Source: Escherichia coli | GTDB taxonomy: Bacteria; Pseudomonadota; Gammaproteobacteria; Enterobacterales; Enterobacteriaceae | Length of the DNA stretch: 64,000 bases | Strand: one strand, 5' to 3' | Assembly: GCF_009931435.1 (NCBI RefSeq) | Contig: NZ_CP043414.1 | Shown here: positions 5,896-17,090 of the stretch, piece by piece | Layout of the letters: every line of letters begins with the position of its first letter | How positions within the stretch are numbered: position 1 is the stretch's first letter | Translations under genes and position numbers: made by a program | The notes under the pieces: generated by a model | What the model was told of the DNA's origin: nothing | Database searches by the model: none | What the model saw: only the letters and a program-made list of their open reading frames with translations

Positions 5896-6081
5896 GTGAA
5901 AAGTGCAGACGTGATCGCCATCCTGAAGCAGCATGGCTGGGAACATATTCGAACCCGTGGTAGTCATCATCAGTTCCGCCACCCTGTTCATCCGGGTCTG
6001 GTGACGGTTCCGCACCCTAAAAAAGATATTAAGCCCGGTACGCTGGCGCAAATTGGGCGTCAGGCTGGTTTAACATTTTAA
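5896..6081 (+). CDS. HicA-family mRNA interferase toxin (predicted)
   Basis: 61-aa ORF with GTG start; motif RTRGSHHQFRHP and C-terminal PHPKKDIKPGTLAQIGRQAGL resemble the HicA/YcfA family; 16 nt upstream of a HicB-like ORF; TATAAT at 5873-5878. Confidence 0.6.
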   Translation: MKSADVIAILKQHGWEHIRTRGSHHQFRHPVHPGLVTVPHPKKDIKPGTLAQIGRQAGLTF

Positions 6082-6097
6082 AATTTCAGGAGGCAAT

Positions 6098-6508
6098 ATG
6101 TTTTATCCCGCCTATATCCACAGTGATCCTGACGGCAGCGCCAGCGGTTTTTTCCCTGATGTTCCAGGCTGTTATTTTGCTGGTGATACGCTGGACAACG
6201 CTTTCCAGGATGCGCGAAGTGCACTGGTCGCGCACTTCGAAACCTTATGCGAGATGAATGAAGAGTTGCCGCTTCCAGGCTCTGTGGAAACACATCTGGT
6301 CCAGCGTGCGCAGGACTTTATTGGCGGGCAATGGTTGCTGGTGGATATCAATATGAATCAGTTCGAAGGTCGGGCTGAACGTATCAATATTACGATGCCG
6401 AAAAGATTACTGAACAAGATTGATACCTACGTGCGCAATAACCCAGACTACGCCAACAGAAGTGCGTTTCTGGCGGAAGCTGCCCGGCGTGTATTGCCGG
6501 GCGTTTAA
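6098..6508 (+). CDS. HicB-family antitoxin with C-terminal ribbon-helix-helix domain (predicted)
   Basis: 136-aa ORF; N-terminal HicB-like fold signature (YPAYIHSDPDGSASGFFPDVPGCYFAGDT...ELPLP); C-terminal RHH-like segment INITMPKRLLNKIDTYV...NRSAFLAEAARRVL; SD AGGAGG 6 nt upstream of ATG. Confidence 0.6.
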   Translation: MFYPAYIHSDPDGSASGFFPDVPGCYFAGDTLDNAFQDARSALVAHFETLCEMNEELPLPGSVETHLVQRAQDFIGGQWLLVDINMNQFEGRAERINITMPKRLLNKIDTYVRNNPDYANRSAFLAEAARRVLPGV

Positions 6509-9561: not shown

Positions 9562-10302
9562 ATGTTAATTAACCGCAATATTGTGGCGTTATTTACGTTG
9601 CCTTTTATGGCAAGCGCAACTGCTTCTGAATTATCCATTGGTGCTGGTGCAGCTTATAATGAATCGCCTTATCGTGGTTATAATGAAAATACAAAGGCAA
9701 TTCCGCTGATTAGTTATGAAGGTGATTCATTTTATGTTCGTCAGACCACGTTAGGTTTTATTCTGTCGCAAAGTGAAAAAAATGAACTTAGCCTGACCGC
9801 ATCCTGGATGCCGCTGGAATTTGACCCTGCAGATAATGACGATCATGCCATGCAACAGCTTGATAAGCGTGATAGTACGGCTATGGCGGGGGTTGCCTGG
9901 TATCACCACGAGCGTTGGGGAACCGTGAAAGCCTCTGCGGCTGCGGACGTTCTGGATAACAGCAACGGCTGGGTGGGGGAGCTATCGGTATTTCACAAAA
10001 TGCAGATAGGTCGCCTGTCGCTGACACCTGCACTGGGCGTTCTCTATTATGACGAGAATTTCAGTGACTATTACTATGGCATTTCAGAGAGTGAGTCCCG
10101 TCGTAGCGGTCTGGCAAGTTATTCCGCGCAGGATGCCTGGGTGCCCTATGTCAGCCTGACGGCAAAATACCCGATAGGAGAGCACATCGTATTGATGGCG
10201 AGTGCCGGATACAGCGAGCTGCCGGAAGAGATTACCGACAGCCCGATGATTGATCGTAATGAGAGTTTTACCTTTGTCACCGGCGTGAGCTGGCGTTTTT
10301 AA
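9562..10302 (+). CDS. yiaT: MipA/OmpV-family outer membrane protein
   Basis: 246-aa ORF with signal peptide (ALFTLPFMASATA) and C-terminal aromatic residue typical of OM beta-barrels. Confidence 0.85.
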   Translation: MLINRNIVALFTLPFMASATASELSIGAGAAYNESPYRGYNENTKAIPLISYEGDSFYVRQTTLGFILSQSEKNELSLTASWMPLEFDPADNDDHAMQQLDKRDSTAMAGVAWYHHERWGTVKASAAADVLDNSNGWVGELSVFHKMQIGRLSLTPALGVLYYDENFSDYYYGISESESRRSGLASYSAQDAWVPYVSLTAKYPIGEHIVLMASAGYSELPEEITDSPMIDRNESFTFVTGVSWRF

Positions 10303-10349
10303 TTTACCGGTGGATGTCGGTGCGGCTGGCCTACGCTCTCGCACTGACC

Positions 10350-10437
10350 TTCAGGCTTGATAAGACGCGTTAAGCGTCGCATCAGGCAATGTGCACCCTA
10401 CGTTGGATGCGGCGCGAGCGCCTTATCCAACCTACGG
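10350..10437. repeat. REP/BIME palindromic repeat cluster
   Basis: Tandem REP-like units (GATAAGACGCGTTAAGCGTCGCATCAGGC; GGATGCGGCGCGAGCGCCTTATCC) between yiaT and the GH127-like gene. Confidence 0.6.
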
Positions 10438-12402
10438 ATGGCAATGCTTTTCCTCATTCACCCAGATCCGCATTTCGCCTTCACCCCGGTTGGCCCAGCT
10501 AAACCACGGGATAAACGTCAGAGTTTGCGGCTGGCGTTTGGCTGGCGCACTATCGTAATGCCACAGCTGTTGCTGCTCTGGATTGCTCTGTTCATACCGG
10601 TAACCCGGTGCCTGGATTAAGATCTTATGGTGGAACAATCCATTACCTTCAAATGTCGTAAATAGCGCATCGGCGGGCAGCCACAGGTTATGCAGTGACT
10701 CGCCGTTGTCGGCCTGTTCCAGGCAATACACCAGCGGGCCGCGCTGAATCGCCACTTTTCCGGCGACGTGACGCACCAGCGGGTTACCGTAAACGCGACG
10801 TACCGGCATTGGCAAAGTCAGATTCAGCGTGTCGCCCTCCTGCCATTCGCGGGTAATGTGCAAATACCCTTTACGAATATCCTGCTCGACCTCTTCCCCA
10901 TTCAATGTAATCTGCGGCTGTGTGCACCAGTCCGGCAGACGTAAAGCCAGCGTATGACGCACCGGCTGGGGCGATTCAACCGCAATTGTCACCTGTTCCT
11001 GCCACGGATAGTTTCCGCTAACCCGCAGACGCAGCGTGCCATTTTCTACCGGCACTTCCATGCTGTTTCCTGCGTAGATGTTGATATACAACGCATCTTC
11101 ACGCGGCGTGTAGAGATAATGACCAATCGAGGTTAGCACACGGGCGATATTTGGCGGACAACAAGCGCAACCAAACCAACGCTGGCGGATCGGCTTAACG
11201 TGATCGTAGATATGGTTGAATTTCAGCGATTTTGGATGTACTTCCAGCGGATTCACATAGAAGAAATGTTTGCCATCCAGCGCCATGCCGCCGAGCACGG
11301 TGTTGTACAGTGCGCGCTCCATCACATCGGCATATTGACTGTCGCCTTCCATTTCCAGCATTCGCCGGGCGAACATCATCAGACCGATGGAAGCACAGCT
11401 TTCGGCGTATACCGTGTCATTCGGCAGATCGTAATCGCTGCTGAACGCTTCGCCGCTGCTTTGTGAGCCAATGCCGCCGGTAATATATAACTGACGCTGG
11501 GCCATATTGTTCCACAGCCGCAGGCAGTCCTGACGCTTGCTTTCATCGTGACTTAAACGCGCGAGATGCGCGACGCCGGTCATCAGGTAGACAAAACGTA
11601 CCGCGTGACCAATGGCGGTTTGCTGCTGTGCGATGGGCAAATGTGCCTGGCTGTAGGCTTTGTCTTTCACCATCCACGCCGGGCCGTAGGTGTGCCAGTG
11701 CGAGGTCTGCCCGCGCTTTTCATATTCCTGGTCGTAATAGTGCGGTTGCGCACCACGCTGTTCGACAAAATAGTGGGTCAGCGCCAGGTAGCGCGGCTCT
11801 TCGGTCACTTCATACAGGCGCATTAGTGCCAGTTCAATTTCCGGGTGACCAGGATAACCGTGTAACTTACTTTCACCTGGACCAAATACGCTGTCGATAT
11901 GATCGGCCAGACGGCAAACCACTTCCAGCAAGCGCCGCTTGCCCGTGGCCTGGAAGAAGGCGACTCCGGCTTCAATCAGATGACCGGCGCAGTAAAGTTC
12001 ATGACACTCCGCCAGATTGCTCCAGCGTTCTTCGGGCGCTTTTACCGTAAAGTAAGTATTGAGATAGCCATCTTCGCACTGGGCGGAAGCGACCAGTTCG
12101 ATTACCTCGTCAGCAGTTTTTTCCAGTTCGGCATCCGGCTTCTGGCACAGCGACCAGGCTACCGCTTCCAGCCATTTGGCGACGTCGCTGTCCTGAAACA
12201 CCATCCCGTAAAATTCACCGTCTTGCAGTCCTGCGGCAATGCGAAAGTTTTCAATCGCATGGCTGGGTTCCGCTTCTGGGATACGATCGTTCAAGGCATC
12301 CCACTGATAAGGAATCACCACGTCGCGGACCAGTTGTTGGTACTGACCGAGGAACGGATCGCTGACCGTCAGTTTATGCAGATCGACTTCCGAAATGTTC
12401 AT
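10432..12402 (-). CDS. Glycoside hydrolase family 127 (DUF1680, beta-L-arabinofuranosidase-like) protein, cytoplasmic
   Basis: 656-aa product from ATG at 12402, preceded by AAGGAG with 6-nt spacer; no signal peptide; E-x-C (AESCAS) and C-x-CC (FGCACCPPN) motifs consistent with the Zn/Cys active site described for GH127 HypBA1. Confidence 0.75.
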   Translation of the reverse strand: MNISEVDLHKLTVSDPFLGQYQQLVRDVVIPYQWDALNDRIPEAEPSHAIENFRIAAGLQDGEFYGMVFQDSDVAKWLEAVAWSLCQKPDAELEKTADEVIELVASAQCEDGYLNTYFTVKAPEERWSNLAECHELYCAGHLIEAGVAFFQATGKRRLLEVVCRLADHIDSVFGPGESKLHGYPGHPEIELALMRLYEVTEEPRYLALTHYFVEQRGAQPHYYDQEYEKRGQTSHWHTYGPAWMVKDKAYSQAHLPIAQQQTAIGHAVRFVYLMTGVAHLARLSHDESKRQDCLRLWNNMAQRQLYITGGIGSQSSGEAFSSDYDLPNDTVYAESCASIGLMMFARRMLEMEGDSQYADVMERALYNTVLGGMALDGKHFFYVNPLEVHPKSLKFNHIYDHVKPIRQRWFGCACCPPNIARVLTSIGHYLYTPREDALYINIYAGNSMEVPVENGTLRLRVSGNYPWQEQVTIAVESPQPVRHTLALRLPDWCTQPQITLNGEEVEQDIRKGYLHITREWQEGDTLNLTLPMPVRRVYGNPLVRHVAGKVAIQRGPLVYCLEQADNGESLHNLWLPADALFTTFEGNGLFHHKILIQAPGYRYEQSNPEQQQLWHYDSAPAKRQPQTLTFIPWFSWANRGEGEMRIWVNEEKHCHP

Positions 12403-12412
12403 CTTGTGCTCC

Positions 12413-13813
12413 TTAAGGCTGTACATGACGCTGACGCAGGTCGCTAGCAATGCGTGACATCATAGGGTTATTGAGTTTGCAAAAGCGGATCGCCATCGCC
12501 AGCAGCAGGTGGAACAGCGCAGGCAGCAATGTTTCCATCGCCGCGATCCCGCCAAGCGAACTGGCGGTCTGGTTTTCCACGCCTGGCTGGTAGGCGACAA
12601 AAATAAACAGCAGGCTGATGATCCCGGCGCTGGAGGCCCAGGCCAGCTTGATGAAAAACAGATTGAAGGCGAAGTTCATGCCGGAAGAACGTACGCGGGT
12701 TTTCCACTCGCCGTAGTCATCGGCAAAGGCCATCAATGAGAAGTGCAATGGCAATGTGAAGCCAAGAATCACGCCATTACCAAGGATCACCGCCAGCCAC
12801 AGCGTTTGATAAGCCGGGCCAGAAGGCAGGAACCACATCAACACCGCCAGCGCGGCGAGGAGCAGGTTGGTGTAGTAGTAAATTTTGACGGTATCGAAAC
12901 GTCGCGTTAACGGGCTGACAATCACCGAGCCGATAATGGAGGCGAAGGTGACCATAGTGAAGAACAGCGACGTGTAGCCCGTACTGCCTTGTAAGACGTA
13001 GGTAATGAAGTACATATACCCACCGCCGCGAATATTAAAGACGTTAATCAGCAGGAAAGACATGACCAGCATCAGCAGCAGTTGGTCGTTGTTTCGCAGC
13101 CCGGCAAGATGTTCGCGCAGGGTAAATTTCCCCATTGTGGAGAGTGGCACCCGTTCACGAACCCAGAAGAAACAGCACAGGAACATCACCACAGCGATGG
13201 CGCACAGCACGCCGACGCCCAGTTGATAGCCGCGCGCGGCATTACCCTGACCGAAGAGATCTACCATCCACGGCAGGCCAACCGAAACCAGAAATCCCGC
13301 TACGCCGCAGAGAACGAATCGCCAGGACTGGCAGGAGATCACTTCATTGTGGCGGGTGGTCATGGTGTTGATCAGCGCGCAGTACGGCACGTTGATGGCG
13401 GTATAACCGACTGAAAGGAGCAGGTAAGTGCCGAACGCCCAGGCGATTTTTACTCCCATGCTGGCATCTGGCACGGTGAACGTCAGGATGCCGATAATGC
13501 CGATGGGAATGGCAATCCACAACTGCCACGGACGAAAGCGCCCCCAGCGACTTTGCGTCCGGTCGGCAATGACGCCCATCACCGGGTCGGAGATGGCATC
13601 AAACACGCGCAGTGCAATAAACAGCGTGCCGACCAGCGCCGGAGTTAAGCCAAAAACGTCGGTGTAGAAAAAGGTGAGAAAGTTCATGATCAGGCAAGTT
13701 ATTACGGTGCCGCCTGCGTCACCCAGGCCGTAGCCTATTTTTTCCCGTACAGATAACGCATCGTCAATTTTACCTTTAGCGATATCAGCGGTAGTAATCG
13801 GTGTAGAGGTCAT
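12413..13813 (-). CDS. GPH-family (MFS superfamily) glycoside/cation symporter
   Basis: 466-aa ORF; about 12 hydrophobic helices; N-terminal region with conserved Asp (GYGLGDAGG...[18 protein letters not shown]) typical of MelB/YicJ-like transporters; stop lies 10 nt upstream of the GH127 start. Confidence 0.75.
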
Positions 13814-14038
13814 AGATATTCCTCGTGCATAGGGAGCAATTTTTAGTTTTATTGAAATGACATGATTAATTCTGCCGTGAACGGGAATATCAACAAGGCG
13901 AGAAAAGAGTAAAAAAAGGTGACGATTCCGACCTGAATTTAAAAGTGTGAATTGGATCAGGTGAAATTAATGTTTTTGATTAATAATCAAAAGGTAATGT
14001 GTTTAATCATTAATGAATAAGCGGGAAATTACATATCA

Positions 14039-14854
14039 ATGCTCGAATTATCCATGACGTTACCGATTAAAGTGCAAAATGGTGGATTATTTATTTCCCG
14101 TGGCGTAGGGAGGCATCCTGCAAGGCGGCTGGAGTCATGGGAAATTATCTTTGTCGAAAAAGGTCGATTAACGATTCAGGAAGAAGAGCAGATATTTCAG
14201 GTTGATGCGGGAGAGAGTTTATTGCTCTGGCCGAAACGTCAGCACGTTGGTGTTGAGGATTTCCCCGCTGACCTTAAATTTTACTGGCTACATTTTGAGG
14301 TTAAAGCGCCGGACAACGATCCGCGCTGGCTCACTCATCTTAGCGTGCCGCAGCACACCAAAGTCGCCGACCCTCAGGCGTTGAGTGCACTGTTTCGCCA
14401 GTTTTTAAGCGAGCAGGAAAAACATCAGCGTAGCCCTGCGCTGGAGTTTATTGTGTTGTTGATTTTACAGCAGCTTACCTTCGACGTACGTCTTGATGAA
14501 CAAGCCGATACTGCAGGCACCGCCCTTGCCTGGAAAGCACAAAAGCTGATCCGCACGCAATATCATCGCCCGCTTTCTACGGCAATTTTGGCCCGCGAGC
14601 TCTACTGTAATGCCGATTATCTTGGGCGCGTGTATCGTCGGGTATTTCGTTTGACGTTGACAGAAGCTATCCATCGCCAAAGAGTGCGCGAAGCCGAAAA
14701 GCTGTTAATTAGCGAAGCGCGATCGCTCACGGAAGTGGCGGCGTTGTGCGGGTTTAATGACGTTGGCTATTTCCGACAGATTTTTCGCAAACACACCGGT
14801 TTAACGCCAGCTGCGTGGAAGCGACGTTACAGTAAGGAACATATCAATTCGTAG
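14039..14854 (+). CDS. AraC/XylS-family transcriptional regulator
   Basis: 271-aa ORF; N-terminal cupin-like sugar-binding domain, C-terminal double HTH (LTEVAALCGFNDVGYFRQIFRKHTGLTPAAWKRRY); divergent from the transporter gene. Confidence 0.8.
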   Translation: MLELSMTLPIKVQNGGLFISRGVGRHPARRLESWEIIFVEKGRLTIQEEEQIFQVDAGESLLLWPKRQHVGVEDFPADLKFYWLHFEVKAPDNDPRWLTHLSVPQHTKVADPQALSALFRQFLSEQEKHQRSPALEFIVLLILQQLTFDVRLDEQADTAGTALAWKAQKLIRTQYHRPLSTAILARELYCNADYLGRVYRRVFRLTLTEAIHRQRVREAEKLLISEARSLTEVAALCGFNDVGYFRQIFRKHTGLTPAAWKRRYSKEHINS

Positions 14855-14856
14855 TG

Positions 14857-14876
14857 CCGGGGCAATGAAGCCCCGG
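14857..14876. terminator. Hairpin between convergent AraC-type gene and sgbE (possible bidirectional terminator)
   Basis: ccgggg-caatgaag-ccccgg stem-loop; no clear T-run. Confidence 0.3.
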
Positions 14877-14885
14877 TCTGAGAGA

Positions 14886-15581
14886 TTACTGCCCGTAATA
14901 GGCATTGGCCCCATGCTTACGCAGGTAATGCTTATCCAGAAGTTCGTTTTGCATCGCAGGAAGCTGCGGCGCAAGCTGGCGCGAGAACAGGCCCATATAG
15001 GCGCACTCTTCGAGTACCACGGCATTATGCACCGCATCGGCGGCGTTATTGCCCCAGGCGAACGGACCGTGAGAATGCACCAATACCGCCGGGATTTGTG
15101 CCGGACTCCTGCCGCGTTCTTCGAAAGTTTCAATGATCACTTCGCCGGTCTGATATTCATATTCGCCGTTAATCTCCGCTGCGGTCATCTGTCGCGTGCA
15201 GGGGATTGCGCCATAGAAATAATCGGCGTGCGTAGTGCCCCAGGCAGGGAGATCCAGCCCGGCCTGTGACCAGATGGTGGCGTGGCGCGAGTGGGTATGC
15301 ACAATGCCACCGATTTCGGCATAGCGACGGTAAAGCGCCAGATGCGTTGGCGTATCGGACGAGGGCTTTTTGCTACCTTCCACCACCTTGCCGCTGGCTA
15401 TCTCAACCACCACCATATCGTCGGCGGTCATCACGTCGTACTCGACGCCGGAAGGCTTAATTACCATCCATTGCCGCGTCTCGTCTACCGCACTGACATT
15501 GCCCCAGGTAAACGTCACCAGATGGTGAGCGGGAAGCGCCAGATTTGCCGCCAGTACGTCGGCTTTCAATCGCTCTAACAT
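14886..15581 (-). CDS. sgbE: L-ribulose-5-phosphate 4-epimerase
   Basis: 231-aa ORF, class II aldolase/epimerase (AraD-like); last gene of the yiaK-sgbE operon. Confidence 0.9.
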
Positions 15582-16435
15582 ATAAATCCAGCCTCCTGCA
15601 TACGCGCTTCAATCCAGCGCCGTGCCTGAATAATCTCCAGCACCGGCTCTTTGGCTTTTTCGGTCCACATCTCAATCAGAAATGATCCGCGATAGTTCAG
15701 TTCATGCAGCGTTTTGAAGATGCCAACGAAATCGACGCAGCCTTCGCCAAACGGCACGTCGCGGAACTGTCCGGGGCTTTGCTCGGTGACTGGCTGGGTG
15801 TCTTTCAGGTGGATGGCGGCGATACGGTCAATGCCCAGTTTCAGTTCGGCGGGAACATCATTGCCCCAGGCGCTAAGGTTGCCGACGTCCGGGTAGACGG
15901 TGAACCACGGCGAGGCGAGCATCTCGTCCCACTTTTTCCATTTGCTGATGGAGTTCATAAACGAGGTATCCATAATCTCCACCGCCAGCATTACTTGTGA
16001 TGCCGCCGCCTGTTCGACAGCCCACGTCAGCCCTTCAGCAAAACGTTGCCGGGTACCTTCGTCATGGTCTTCGTAATAGACGTCGTAGCCCGCCAGTTGA
16101 ATGGTGCGAATACCGAGATCGCACGCCAGATGAATTGCTTTGCTCATGATCTCCAGTGCTCGCTGGCGTACCGCGTCGTCACGGCTACCAAAGGGAAAAC
16201 GACGATGTGCGGACAGGCACATCGACGGGATCCCAACGCCCGTTTCGATCATCGCGGCAACCAGCGAAGTCCTTTGTGCGGCGCTCCAGTCAAGGCGCGA
16301 CAGACGCTCGTCAGTTTCATCCACCGACATTTCGACAAAATCAAAGCCACAGCTTTTCGCCAGCACCAGCCGCTCCGGCCAGGAGAGATCTTTCGCCAGT
16401 GCTTTTTCATAAATCCCTAACGGATGATTACGCAC
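15575..16435 (-). CDS. sgbU: L-xylulose-5-phosphate 3-epimerase
   Basis: 286-aa product from GTG at 16435 ([13 protein letters not shown]...); overlaps sgbH stop by 8 nt; xylose-isomerase-like TIM barrel family. Confidence 0.85.
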
Positions 16436-17090
16436 GCGCGCCTCCCCAGATAGCGTCGATTTGCGCATGGAAGTCGGCCGCCACCTGCGCCGGATTTGCT
16501 GCGCCTGCCAGCGCCCGCCCGGCAATAAACGCTTTCACGCGGATATCTTTAAACAGCGGCAGGTCAGCAGGCGTAATCCCGCCGGTAACGGAAAGCTCAA
16601 GGCCGATATCGGAAAGCGCCTTCATGCGTGCCAGATCGGCTTCGCCCCACTGTTGCCCGCTGGCCTGCGCGTCACGGCCACGATGATAAATGGCCTGCCG
16701 CACGCCAATACGATGCCAGTCGCGGGCGTCGTCCAGCGTCCAGTTACCAAAAAGCTCTATCTGGATTTCACCACCGCAGCGTTGCGCCATCGCGTGGCCT
16801 TTTTCCACCGTCGCGAGCGGTGCGGCGCAGATGATGGTCATCCAGTTAGCGCCTGCACCAAACGCCTGTTGCGCGAGCGTTTCACCCGCGTCGGCGACTT
16901 TCCAGTCAGCAACGATGATTTTGTCCGGGCACTGTTCGCGCAAGGCTTTCACCGCGCCAAGCCCTTCGTTTAAACAGAGAATGGTGCCCGCTTCGACGAT
17001 ATCGACGCTGTCTTTTAACAGCGCAACGTCGCGCTGTGCGGCTTCAAGTGATGAGTGGTCGAGGGCCAGTTGCAGAAGTGGTCTGCTCAT
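16428..17090 (-). CDS. sgbH: 3-keto-L-gulonate-6-phosphate decarboxylase
   Basis: 220-aa ORF; orotidine-5'-phosphate decarboxylase-like family; overlaps lyxK stop (ATGA-type junction). Confidence 0.9.

Follow-up and report, generated by a model that had tools for sequence, protein, structure and literature searches.

Between yiaT and sgbE, the window analysed here (64,000 nucleotides of Escherichia coli DNA) carries a cassette coding for a GH127-family hydrolase, a GPH-family symporter and an AraC-type regulator, which is probably an operon that enterobacteria have passed on vertically and that serves to scavenge small beta-L-arabinofuranosides. Real but ordinary, this three-gene system for scavenging sugar leaves current understanding standing and adds to E. 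coli a testable, strain-variable carbohydrate-utilisation trait missing from the K-12 reference.

The three intact genes described at this position in the original prediction (466-aa GPH symporter, 656-aa GH127 protein and divergent 271-aa AraC-type regulator) were recovered as open reading frames exactly as claimed (Table 1), and the RefSeq gene models for the cassette in other E. coli have the same lengths (1401, 1971 and 816 nt, respectively). The protein encoded by the flanking yiaT is 100% identical to the annotated yiaT of E. coli R32_14_1F. On the minus strand the symporter/GH127 junction reads ...CCT TAA GGAGCACAAG ATG, so that the gap between the two genes is 10 nt; the Shine-Dalgarno motif AAGGAG (12414-12409) overlaps the symporter TAA stop (12413-12415) and stands 6 nt from the GH127 ATG. 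The predicted layout of a translationally coupled two-gene operon can thus be read directly from the DNA. At the yiaT side, where a REP/BIME cluster had also been predicted, an inverted-repeat search revealed two imperfect palindromes spanning 10353-10437, and the REP-derived Rfam family naRNA4 matched 10354-10432 with 67.8 bits (gathering threshold 59.5), identifying the element as a REP/BIME unit; canonical REPs are present elsewhere in the window. According to the 3'-end alignment, the GH127 gene takes its final Pro codon and its TAG stop from the end of this unit. The GC-rich hairpin between the AraC gene and sgbE is also found at the K-12 scar junction; a match of Rfam CRISPR-DR16 to 14857-14879 (20.7 bits, gathering threshold 35) was dismissed as being just this terminator-like hairpin.

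Table 1. Features of the yiaT-sgbE region, in window positions.
Feature	Position	Strand	Basis or detail
yiaT, left flank, MipA/OmpV family outer-membrane protein	9562..10302	+	ORF
REP/BIME unit, two inverted REP-like palindromes	10354..10432		Inverted repeats, Rfam naRNA4 RF02564
GH127 gene, 656 aa from ATG	10432..12402	-	ORF
Shine-Dalgarno AAGGAG for GH127 gene	12409..12414	-	Direct reading
GPH-family symporter gene, 466 aa	12413..13813	-	ORF
Putative promoter of the symporter-GH127 operon	13869..13896	-	-35-like TTGTTG 13896-13891, 16-nt spacer, -10-like CAGAAT 13874-13869
Highly conserved 30-bp block, putative AraC-type operator	13905..13934	-	Phylogenetic footprint, just upstream of -35
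Candidate CRP site TGTGA-ATTGGA-TCAGG (+ strand reading)	13946..13961		Footprint
AraC/XylS-family regulator gene, 271 aa	14039..14854	+	Divergently transcribed
GC-rich hairpin between convergent stops of AraC gene and sgbE	14856..14877		Minimum free energy -19.7 kcal/mol, z = -4.5
sgbE, right flank, L-ribulose-5-phosphate 4-epimerase	14886..15581	-	NF009002, 507 bits (cutoff 386)

Pfam and TIGR00792 matches agree with the families originally assigned to the three proteins. The hydrolase contains all three GH127 domains, PF07944 (E = 7e-112, residues 12-427), PF20736 (438-532) and PF20737 (534-649), corresponding to the catalytic (alpha/alpha)6 domain and the middle and C-terminal beta domains, and belongs to GH127 (formerly DUF1680). 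It shares 55% identity over 630 aligned residues (E=6.6e-237) with the Geobacillus GH127 beta-L-arabinofuranosidase 4QJY and was aligned at residue level with the HypBA1 structure 3WKW (E=2.3e-152), in which the nucleophile Cys417, the acid/base Glu322 and the zinc ligands have been assigned (PMC8106489). HypBA1 E322, E338, C340, C417 and C418 all align to identical residues, and the motifs AESCAS and GCACC, earlier proposed to fit the Zn/Cys site of HypBA1, fall on E338/C340 and C415/C417/C418. The alignment, by which the presence of the catalytic Glu and Cys was checked, gives E318 (HypBA1 Glu322) as the predicted acid/base, C414 (Cys417) as the predicted nucleophile, and E334, C336, C414 and C415 (Glu338, Cys340, Cys417 and Cys418) as the (Cys)3-Glu zinc site; the catalytic and zinc-ligand residues are invariant in 83 orthologues. 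As expected of a protein claimed to have no signal peptide, no hydrophobic stretch was found at its N-terminus. The hydrolase is predicted to be a cytoplasmic beta-L-arabinofuranosidase, and hydrolysis of non-reducing-end beta-L-arabinofuranosides (EC 3.2.1.185) is suggested by the 55% identity to 4QJY, a solved structure deposited as such an enzyme.

GH127 is a polyspecific family, and the hydrolase might instead be a member of other specificity, the operon importing some other glycoside; candidates are aceric acid, 3,6-anhydro-D-galactose, another furanoside or a glycoside feeding the L-xylulose/L-lyxose (yiaK-S) pathway. The sole NCBIfam match of the hydrolase is indeed to the aceric acid hydrolase model (equivalog NF049879), but its score of 457.7 bits is less than half of the cutoff of 950, with the best stretch limited to residues 252-649, the C-terminal two-thirds, and this assignment was rejected, whereas the two best solved relatives align over the full length and are both deposited as beta-L-arabinofuranosidases. 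A connection with yiaK-S, whose physiological substrate is to our knowledge unsettled, would fit the position of the cassette next to sgbE in many genera; however, O157-type strains lack yiaJ through sgbE but retain the cassette, whereas K-12 lacks the cassette but retains yiaJ-sgbE, and therefore the two units are separable. We consider another specificity unlikely and take beta-L-arabinofuranosides as the probable substrates. As a separate observation, homologues of the hydrolase in Bradyrhizobium (72% identity) occur without the symporter and the regulator, and in three loci an S9 prolyl oligopeptidase adjoins them; this neighbour is suggestive of glycopeptide substrates and is not conclusive.

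The symporter matched the GPH model TIGR00792 with 333.2 bits (cutoff 231.35) over model positions 1-437 of 437, as well as Pfam MFS_2 (PF13347) over its full length (E = 3e-73), and belongs to TC 2.A.2. Among the subfamily models YagG comes closest, the YicJ-like PRK11462 also being one of the best, and none of the named equivalog models YagG, YicJ-like, MelB and UidB reaches its cutoff. The cation coupling, the direction of transport and the substrate of the symporter are putative. The regulator combines an AraC_binding cupin (PF02311, 26-134) with a C-terminal double HTH (PF12833, 184-263, and PF00165) and is a member of the AraC/XylS family; no NCBIfam equivalog matched it at cutoff, and equivalence to AraC, RhaS/R or MelR is excluded.

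A generic sigma-70 promoter scan of the divergent intergenic region called no promoter. Our phylogenetic footprint, for which 71 intergenic regions representing about 25 genera were aligned, points to TTGTTG-16-CAGAAT as the promoter of the symporter-GH127 operon, both hexamers being invariant or nearly so; a TTGATA-17-ATTAAT promoter considered first was dropped because only the TTGTTG and CAGAAT hexamers are conserved across genera. The adjacent 30-bp block, AGGTCGGAATCGTCACCTTTTTTTACTCTT, contains a degenerate direct repeat (TCAYCTTTTT / TYSCCTTGTT, 21 bp apart) and may serve as the operator of the AraC-type regulator in a manner comparable to the AraC I1-I2 sites. The candidate CRP site matches 14 of 22 positions of the CRP consensus by manual count and has only one good half-site; one of its half-sites, TCACA in symporter orientation, is conserved across genera. 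The operon would thus be under AraC-type control, with CRP probably taking part.

The full cassette was found in 2313 of 5426 complete E. coli genomes, including BL21 and O157:H7, which agrees with the expectation that it is strain-variable and not core, and the exact K-12 scar junction in 2462 of them (~45%); a plasmid location accounted for 1 of 8241 matched places. All three genes are absent from the junction in K-12 W3110, as the original prediction had it, but the junction is not simply empty, for a deletion scar remains there as ysaC and ysaD, pseudogenes between sgbE (yiaS) and yiaT. Base-level mapping shows that the scar keeps ~190 bp from the 3' region of the GH127 gene (87% identical) and ~100 bp from the 3' end of the AraC gene; nothing is left of the symporter, and ysaC and ysaD are remnants of the GH127-GPH-AraC cassette. 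Furthermore, wherever a recovered enterobacterial locus is long enough to cover the three genes (~70 species), the divergent arrangement of the AraC gene and the GPH-GH127 pair is intact. Orthologues of sgbE and/or yiaT flank the cassette in many enterobacterial loci, among others in Citrobacter, Klebsiella, Raoultella, Enterobacter, Lelliottia and Salmonella diarizonae, and amino-acid identity among the enterobacterial orthologues outside Escherichia amounts to 79-88% for GH127, 80-94% for the symporter and 59-85% for the regulator.

The view of the cassette as an addition between core genes has accordingly to be reversed: it is ancestral at the sgbE-yiaT junction across Enterobacteriaceae, inherited and not an inserted island, and its absence from the K-12-containing lineage goes back to one old deletion in two parts, which left ysaC and ysaD. 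A horizontally acquired accessory island, present only in some E. coli, could account for the absence in K-12, the incomplete distribution among the complete genomes and the REP cluster at one cassette edge, yet it is at odds with the two fragments in the K-12 scar, the synteny across genera, a GC content equal to that of the flanks, the almost exclusively chromosomal location and the lack of any integrase, IS element or tRNA at the cassette; it was rejected as scarcely credible. It is also very unlikely that this ancestral operon is now a decaying relic without current function in E. coli. Deletion in at least 45% of complete genomes could be read that way, as could the AraC gene of some strains, which bears no annotation beyond 'helix-turn-helix domain-containing protein' and may be truncated; against this, all three genes have uninterrupted, full-length frames both in the window and in distant genera, the catalytic residues are invariant and the regulatory DNA is conserved. 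In addition, a patch of the AraC gene that diverges in DNA (85-89% identity) is better conserved in protein (95%), in keeping with purifying selection. The loss in about half of E. coli shows that the operon is dispensable in many niches.

In the mechanism we propose, the GPH symporter would import the glycoside together with a cation, most plausibly beta-1,2-L-arabinobiose or another short oligosaccharide or glycoside of beta-L-Araf, which may be set free from hydroxyproline-rich glycoproteins of plants or from side chains of pectin. In the cytoplasm, the translationally coupled GH127 would cleave the non-reducing beta-L-Araf by means of the zinc-held nucleophile C414 and the acid/base E318, and the released L-arabinose would enter the core araBAD pathway. 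The divergent AraC-type regulator would activate the operon from the conserved operator abutting the -35 element, probably with CRP. The sequence data establish the genes present, their families, the catalytic residues, the conserved synteny, the scar and the conserved non-coding blocks; the identity of the substrate, the direction and coupling of its transport, the inducer and the promoter and operator assignments are inferred, and the source of the substrate is conjectural because the cassette encodes no secreted enzyme releasing beta-L-arabino-oligosaccharides. Possibly, although we hold this tentatively, Enterobacteriaceae cross-feed on beta-L-arabinofuranosyl oligosaccharides (e.g., beta-1,2-arabinobiose) that other microbes of the gut or of plants free from extensin-type glycoproteins; still less probably, the operon serves for a plant or host glycoside not yet recognised. 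Cross-feeding, if it holds, would make the symporter the first transporter of the secondary (non-ABC) type for beta-L-arabinofuranosyl oligosaccharides, and presence or absence of the operon would shape niche differences in E. coli, a role hinted at by its co-segregation with invasive IBD isolates and environmental clade IV genomes.

The cassette had been supposed to be uncharacterised in Enterobacteriaceae. The literature searched mentions the genes in pangenome or transcriptome work only; it yielded neither a biochemical characterisation in E. coli or any other member of Enterobacteriaceae nor enzyme-assay, transport-assay or expression data for the hydrolase or its enterobacterial orthologues. 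The genes themselves are not new, since they carry RefSeq annotation in thousands of genomes, and the GH127 gene has been flagged in pangenome studies and linked there to invasive IBD isolates. For this gene our analysis offers a concrete, testable mechanism, and the pseudogenes ysaC and ysaD of K-12 are accounted for as what deletion of the operon left behind. BL21(DE3)-type hosts carry the intact cassette and therefore may show background beta-L-arabinofuranosidase activity, which may affect assays of recombinant GH127 enzymes in their crude extracts.

The design of a GPH symporter paired with a cytoplasmic exo-glycosidase is shared with the E. coli gene pairs yicJ-yicI, yagG-yagH, uidB-uidA and melB-melA, which use GH31, GH43, GH2 or GH4 enzymes in contrast to the GH127 of the cassette. 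Control by an AraC-family activator and CRP is likewise a known design, with melAB as an example (cited in PMC13304739). Ara127N of Geobacillus stearothermophilus T6 (PDB 4QJY/4QK0) has the same three-domain layout and the same catalytic Glu/Cys and zinc residues as the E. coli enzyme, although its host is a Gram-positive thermophile. The Ara127N gene belongs to a large L-arabinan utilisation cluster with ABC transporters and not to a cassette with a GPH symporter and an AraC regulator. The Bifidobacterium longum system consists of the extracellular GH121 HypBA2, an ABC transporter for beta-Ara2 and the intracellular GH127 HypBA1, the beta-L-arabinofuranosyl disaccharide being imported and then cleaved in the cytoplasm by the cysteine-nucleophile enzyme (PMC8106489). 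The E. coli cassette follows the same import-then-cleave logic with identical catalytic residues, but it has neither GH121 nor another secreted releasing enzyme, its hydrolase is missing a 12-residue insertion near HypBA1 residues 36-47, and it relies on a secondary GPH symporter in place of the ABC transporter and on an AraC-type regulator.

The gene order at the junction, taken from a six-frame ORF list of the window, is given below together with the conserved elements of the divergent intergenic region.

Coordinates of the genes and candidate regulatory elements between yiaT and sgbE
Feature	Position	Strand or orientation	Basis
yiaT	9562-10302	+	ORF list
GH127 hydrolase, 656 aa	10432-12402	-	ORF; start at an ATG with a preceding Shine-Dalgarno
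GPH symporter, 466 aa	12413-13813	-	ORF list
Divergent intergenic gap, 225 bp, AT-rich	between the 466-aa and 271-aa ORFs
Shine-Dalgarno of the symporter side, last of the conserved blocks		symporter orientation	conservation
-10-like CAGAAT, near-invariant, 16-nt spacer after the -35-like element	13874-13869	symporter orientation	conservation
Invariant CCTTGTTG with -35-like TTGTTG	13896-13891	symporter orientation	conservation
30-bp conserved block AGGTCGGAATCGTCACCTTTTTTTACTCTT	13934-13905	symporter orientation	conservation
Candidate CRP site GATC-N4-TCACA	13961-13946	symporter orientation	conservation; one good half-site
AraC-type regulator, 271 aa	14039-14854	+	ORF list
sgbE	14886-15581	-	ORF list

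Direct reading of the minus strand gave CCT-TAA-GGAGCACAAG-ATG at the symporter-hydrolase junction, in agreement with the earlier description of a 10-base gap and an AAGGAG overlapping the symporter stop codon. The three genes have a GC content of 0.52-0.56, equal to that of their flanks, and AT-richness is confined to the divergent promoter region.

Pfam matched the catalytic, middle and C-terminal GH127 domains of the hydrolase. Its best solved relative is the GH127 beta-L-arabinofuranosidase of Geobacillus stearothermophilus (4QJY, E = 6.6e-237; 55% identity over 630 aligned residues), followed by HypBA1 of Bifidobacterium longum (E = 2e-152), in which Glu322 is the acid/base, Cys417 the nucleophile, and Glu338, Cys340, Cys417 and Cys418 the (Cys)3-Glu zinc ligands (PMC8106489). 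By alignment these correspond to E318, C414, and E334, C336, C414 and C415, all of them invariant in 83 orthologues, as are four further conserved positions (H134, H186, H266 and Y382). No hydrophobic stretch was found at the N-terminus, in keeping with a cytoplasmic location. Aceric acid hydrolase, the sole NCBIfam match to the GH127 protein, was rejected as an identity, its 458 bits falling below the cutoff of 950. The symporter scored above the TIGR00792 GPH cutoff, with YagG and YicJ-like models as the closest subfamilies, and matched Pfam MFS_2 over its full length. The regulator combines an AraC_binding cupin domain with a double HTH; no NCBIfam equivalog model fits it.

Outside E. coli, one genome per species was scanned and the best 80 of 263 hydrolase relatives were kept. 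Among these, every enterobacterial locus reaching far enough carries the symporter gene immediately upstream of the hydrolase gene and a divergent AraC gene, an arrangement found in about 70 species, including Citrobacter, Klebsiella, Raoultella, Enterobacter, Kluyvera, Pantoea, Salmonella diarizonae, Buttiauxella and others. Many of these loci also share the flanks of the window, being bordered by orthologues of sgbE and/or yiaT in just the same way. This arrangement, conserved across genera together with its flanks, makes the cassette the ancestral state of the yiaT-sgbE junction and K-12 a case of loss. The original observation was confirmed and its reading as a glycoside-utilisation cassette supported, with two amendments: the operon is ancestral here and K-12 has lost it, and its genes had already been annotated and noticed.

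Between yiaT and sgbE, K-12 W3110 has two partial genes annotated as pseudogenes. One is a GH127 3' fragment of about 190 bp, 87% identical to window 10540-10729; it runs straight into what remains of the AraC gene, the final ~100 bp (window 14751 onwards). Since the pseudogenes are a GH127 3' fragment fused to an AraC 3' end, K-12 carries two deletions. One, flanked by short GCGGCTGG repeats, took out ~210 bp (window ~10330-10539) and with it the REP unit and the final 36 codons; the other, of ~4.0 kb, covers window 10730-14750. The named K-12 pseudogenes ysaC and ysaD are placed at exactly this junction by a strain genotype (PMC12361893).

Among 5426 complete E. coli genomes, with presence defined as at least 80% coverage, the cassette was found in 2313, always on the chromosome, with carriers including BL21-Gold(DE3) and O157:H7 strains. 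A 160-bp probe across the K-12 fusion point, scored by the same threshold, was present in 2462 of the 5426, and therefore one old deletion allele accounts for most cassette-negative E. coli. The cassette is intact in BL21-Gold(DE3)pLysS AG (NC_012947.1), a standard BL21(DE3) expression host, and is missing from K-12 cloning strains; background activity is possible when BL21 extracts are used to assay GH127 enzymes expressed in that host.

In O157-type strains the cassette is kept, yiaJ through sgbE are gone and an IclR remnant is left; K-12 lost the cassette and kept the yiaK-S/sgb genes. Functionally, the cassette is therefore separable from these neighbouring genes. In the O157-like strain ERL04-3476 (L003), where the whole yiaJ-yiaK...sgbE operon is deleted and the cassette retained, the 141-bp IclR (yiaJ) remnant (L003 10554-10694) abuts the AraC gene and is followed by ysaA and avtA.

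Bradyrhizobium species encode a GH127 protein that shares 72% identity with the E. coli enzyme, an unusually high value across classes that suggests horizontal transfer. They have neither the symporter nor the AraC gene beside it, and at three of their loci (L074, L075 and L079; e.g. L075 4701-8953) an S9 prolyl oligopeptidase gene lies directly upstream, a neighbour that hints at proline/hydroxyproline-rich glycopeptide substrates.

Window ~5750-14000 matches E. coli R32_14_1F at 99-100% identity. Within the AraC gene, a patch at 14150-14750 is only 85-89% identical to that strain (proteins 95% identical), the allele more closely resembling (95.5%) its counterparts in Escherichia whittamii and Escherichia sp. 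E1V33, and a second patch covers 16000-16250 (sgbU). No complete E. coli genome exceeded 95.7% identity over 14039-17090. The patches look as if they were imported by recombination from another, divergent Escherichia lineage. Between aldB and yiaW lies a hicA/hicB-like toxin-antitoxin pair (5896-6508; 61 and 136 aa), annotated HicA/HicB in R32_14_1F (L002 594-1206) and not present in the K-12 locus (L001).

The REP/BIME cluster proposed at the yiaT side was borne out by two imperfect palindromes (10353-10437) and by a match to the REP-derived Rfam family naRNA4 (10354-10432) above its gathering score. The hydrolase gene takes its last codon, for Pro, and its TAG stop from the end of the element. 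Orthologues in other genera terminate a few codons past a conserved WVNE; the Escherichia enzyme carries a 5-6 residue C-terminal tail (KHCHP), absent from those orthologues, because its stop and last Pro codon (10432-10437) fall within the REP element's terminal CCTACGG.

In an alignment of the divergent intergenic region from 71 loci, the regulator-proximal half showed no conservation and the symporter-proximal half contained sharply conserved blocks. Both the 30-bp block and the -35 are covered by a degenerate direct repeat, 21 bp apart. By its resemblance, the layout suggests putative class II activation of the AraC type, with a CRP site upstream; a generic promoter scan called no promoter in the region. 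In many non-Escherichia genera (L006, L014, L018, L024, L026, L034, L041 and L062) the 5' UTR of the symporter gene, which follows the inferred promoter, contains a GC-rich hairpin, AAAGCCCGC-N6-GCGGG. The hairpin is absent from Escherichia and may represent an attenuator or a small insertion resembling a REP.

The cassette genes are routinely annotated, in RefSeq as 'glycoside hydrolase family 127 protein | MFS transporter | AraC family transcriptional regulator'. Among IBD E. coli isolates, the GH127 gene has been singled out as an accessory gene that co-segregates with epithelial invasion (PMC11879602; also a commentary), and a published study found it enriched in environmental clade IV Escherichia. 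A GH127 gene, its orthology to the cassette gene unverified, was induced in Salmonella on lactulose, its specificity being uncharacterised according to the authors. In the literature searched, neither enzymological nor genetic work on an enterobacterial member was found. The cassette is an uncharacterised enterobacterial operon of known type, already annotated and noticed.

In the proposed mechanism, the symporter would bring in a small beta-L-arabinofuranoside, from which the coupled cytoplasmic GH127 enzyme would free L-arabinose usable by araBAD, and the operon would be switched on by the AraC-type protein, probably together with CRP. Unlike the HypBA2/HypBA1 system of B. longum, which has a secreted releasing enzyme (PMC8106489), the E. 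coli cassette is without one, and its substrate would therefore have to come from plants or other microbes.
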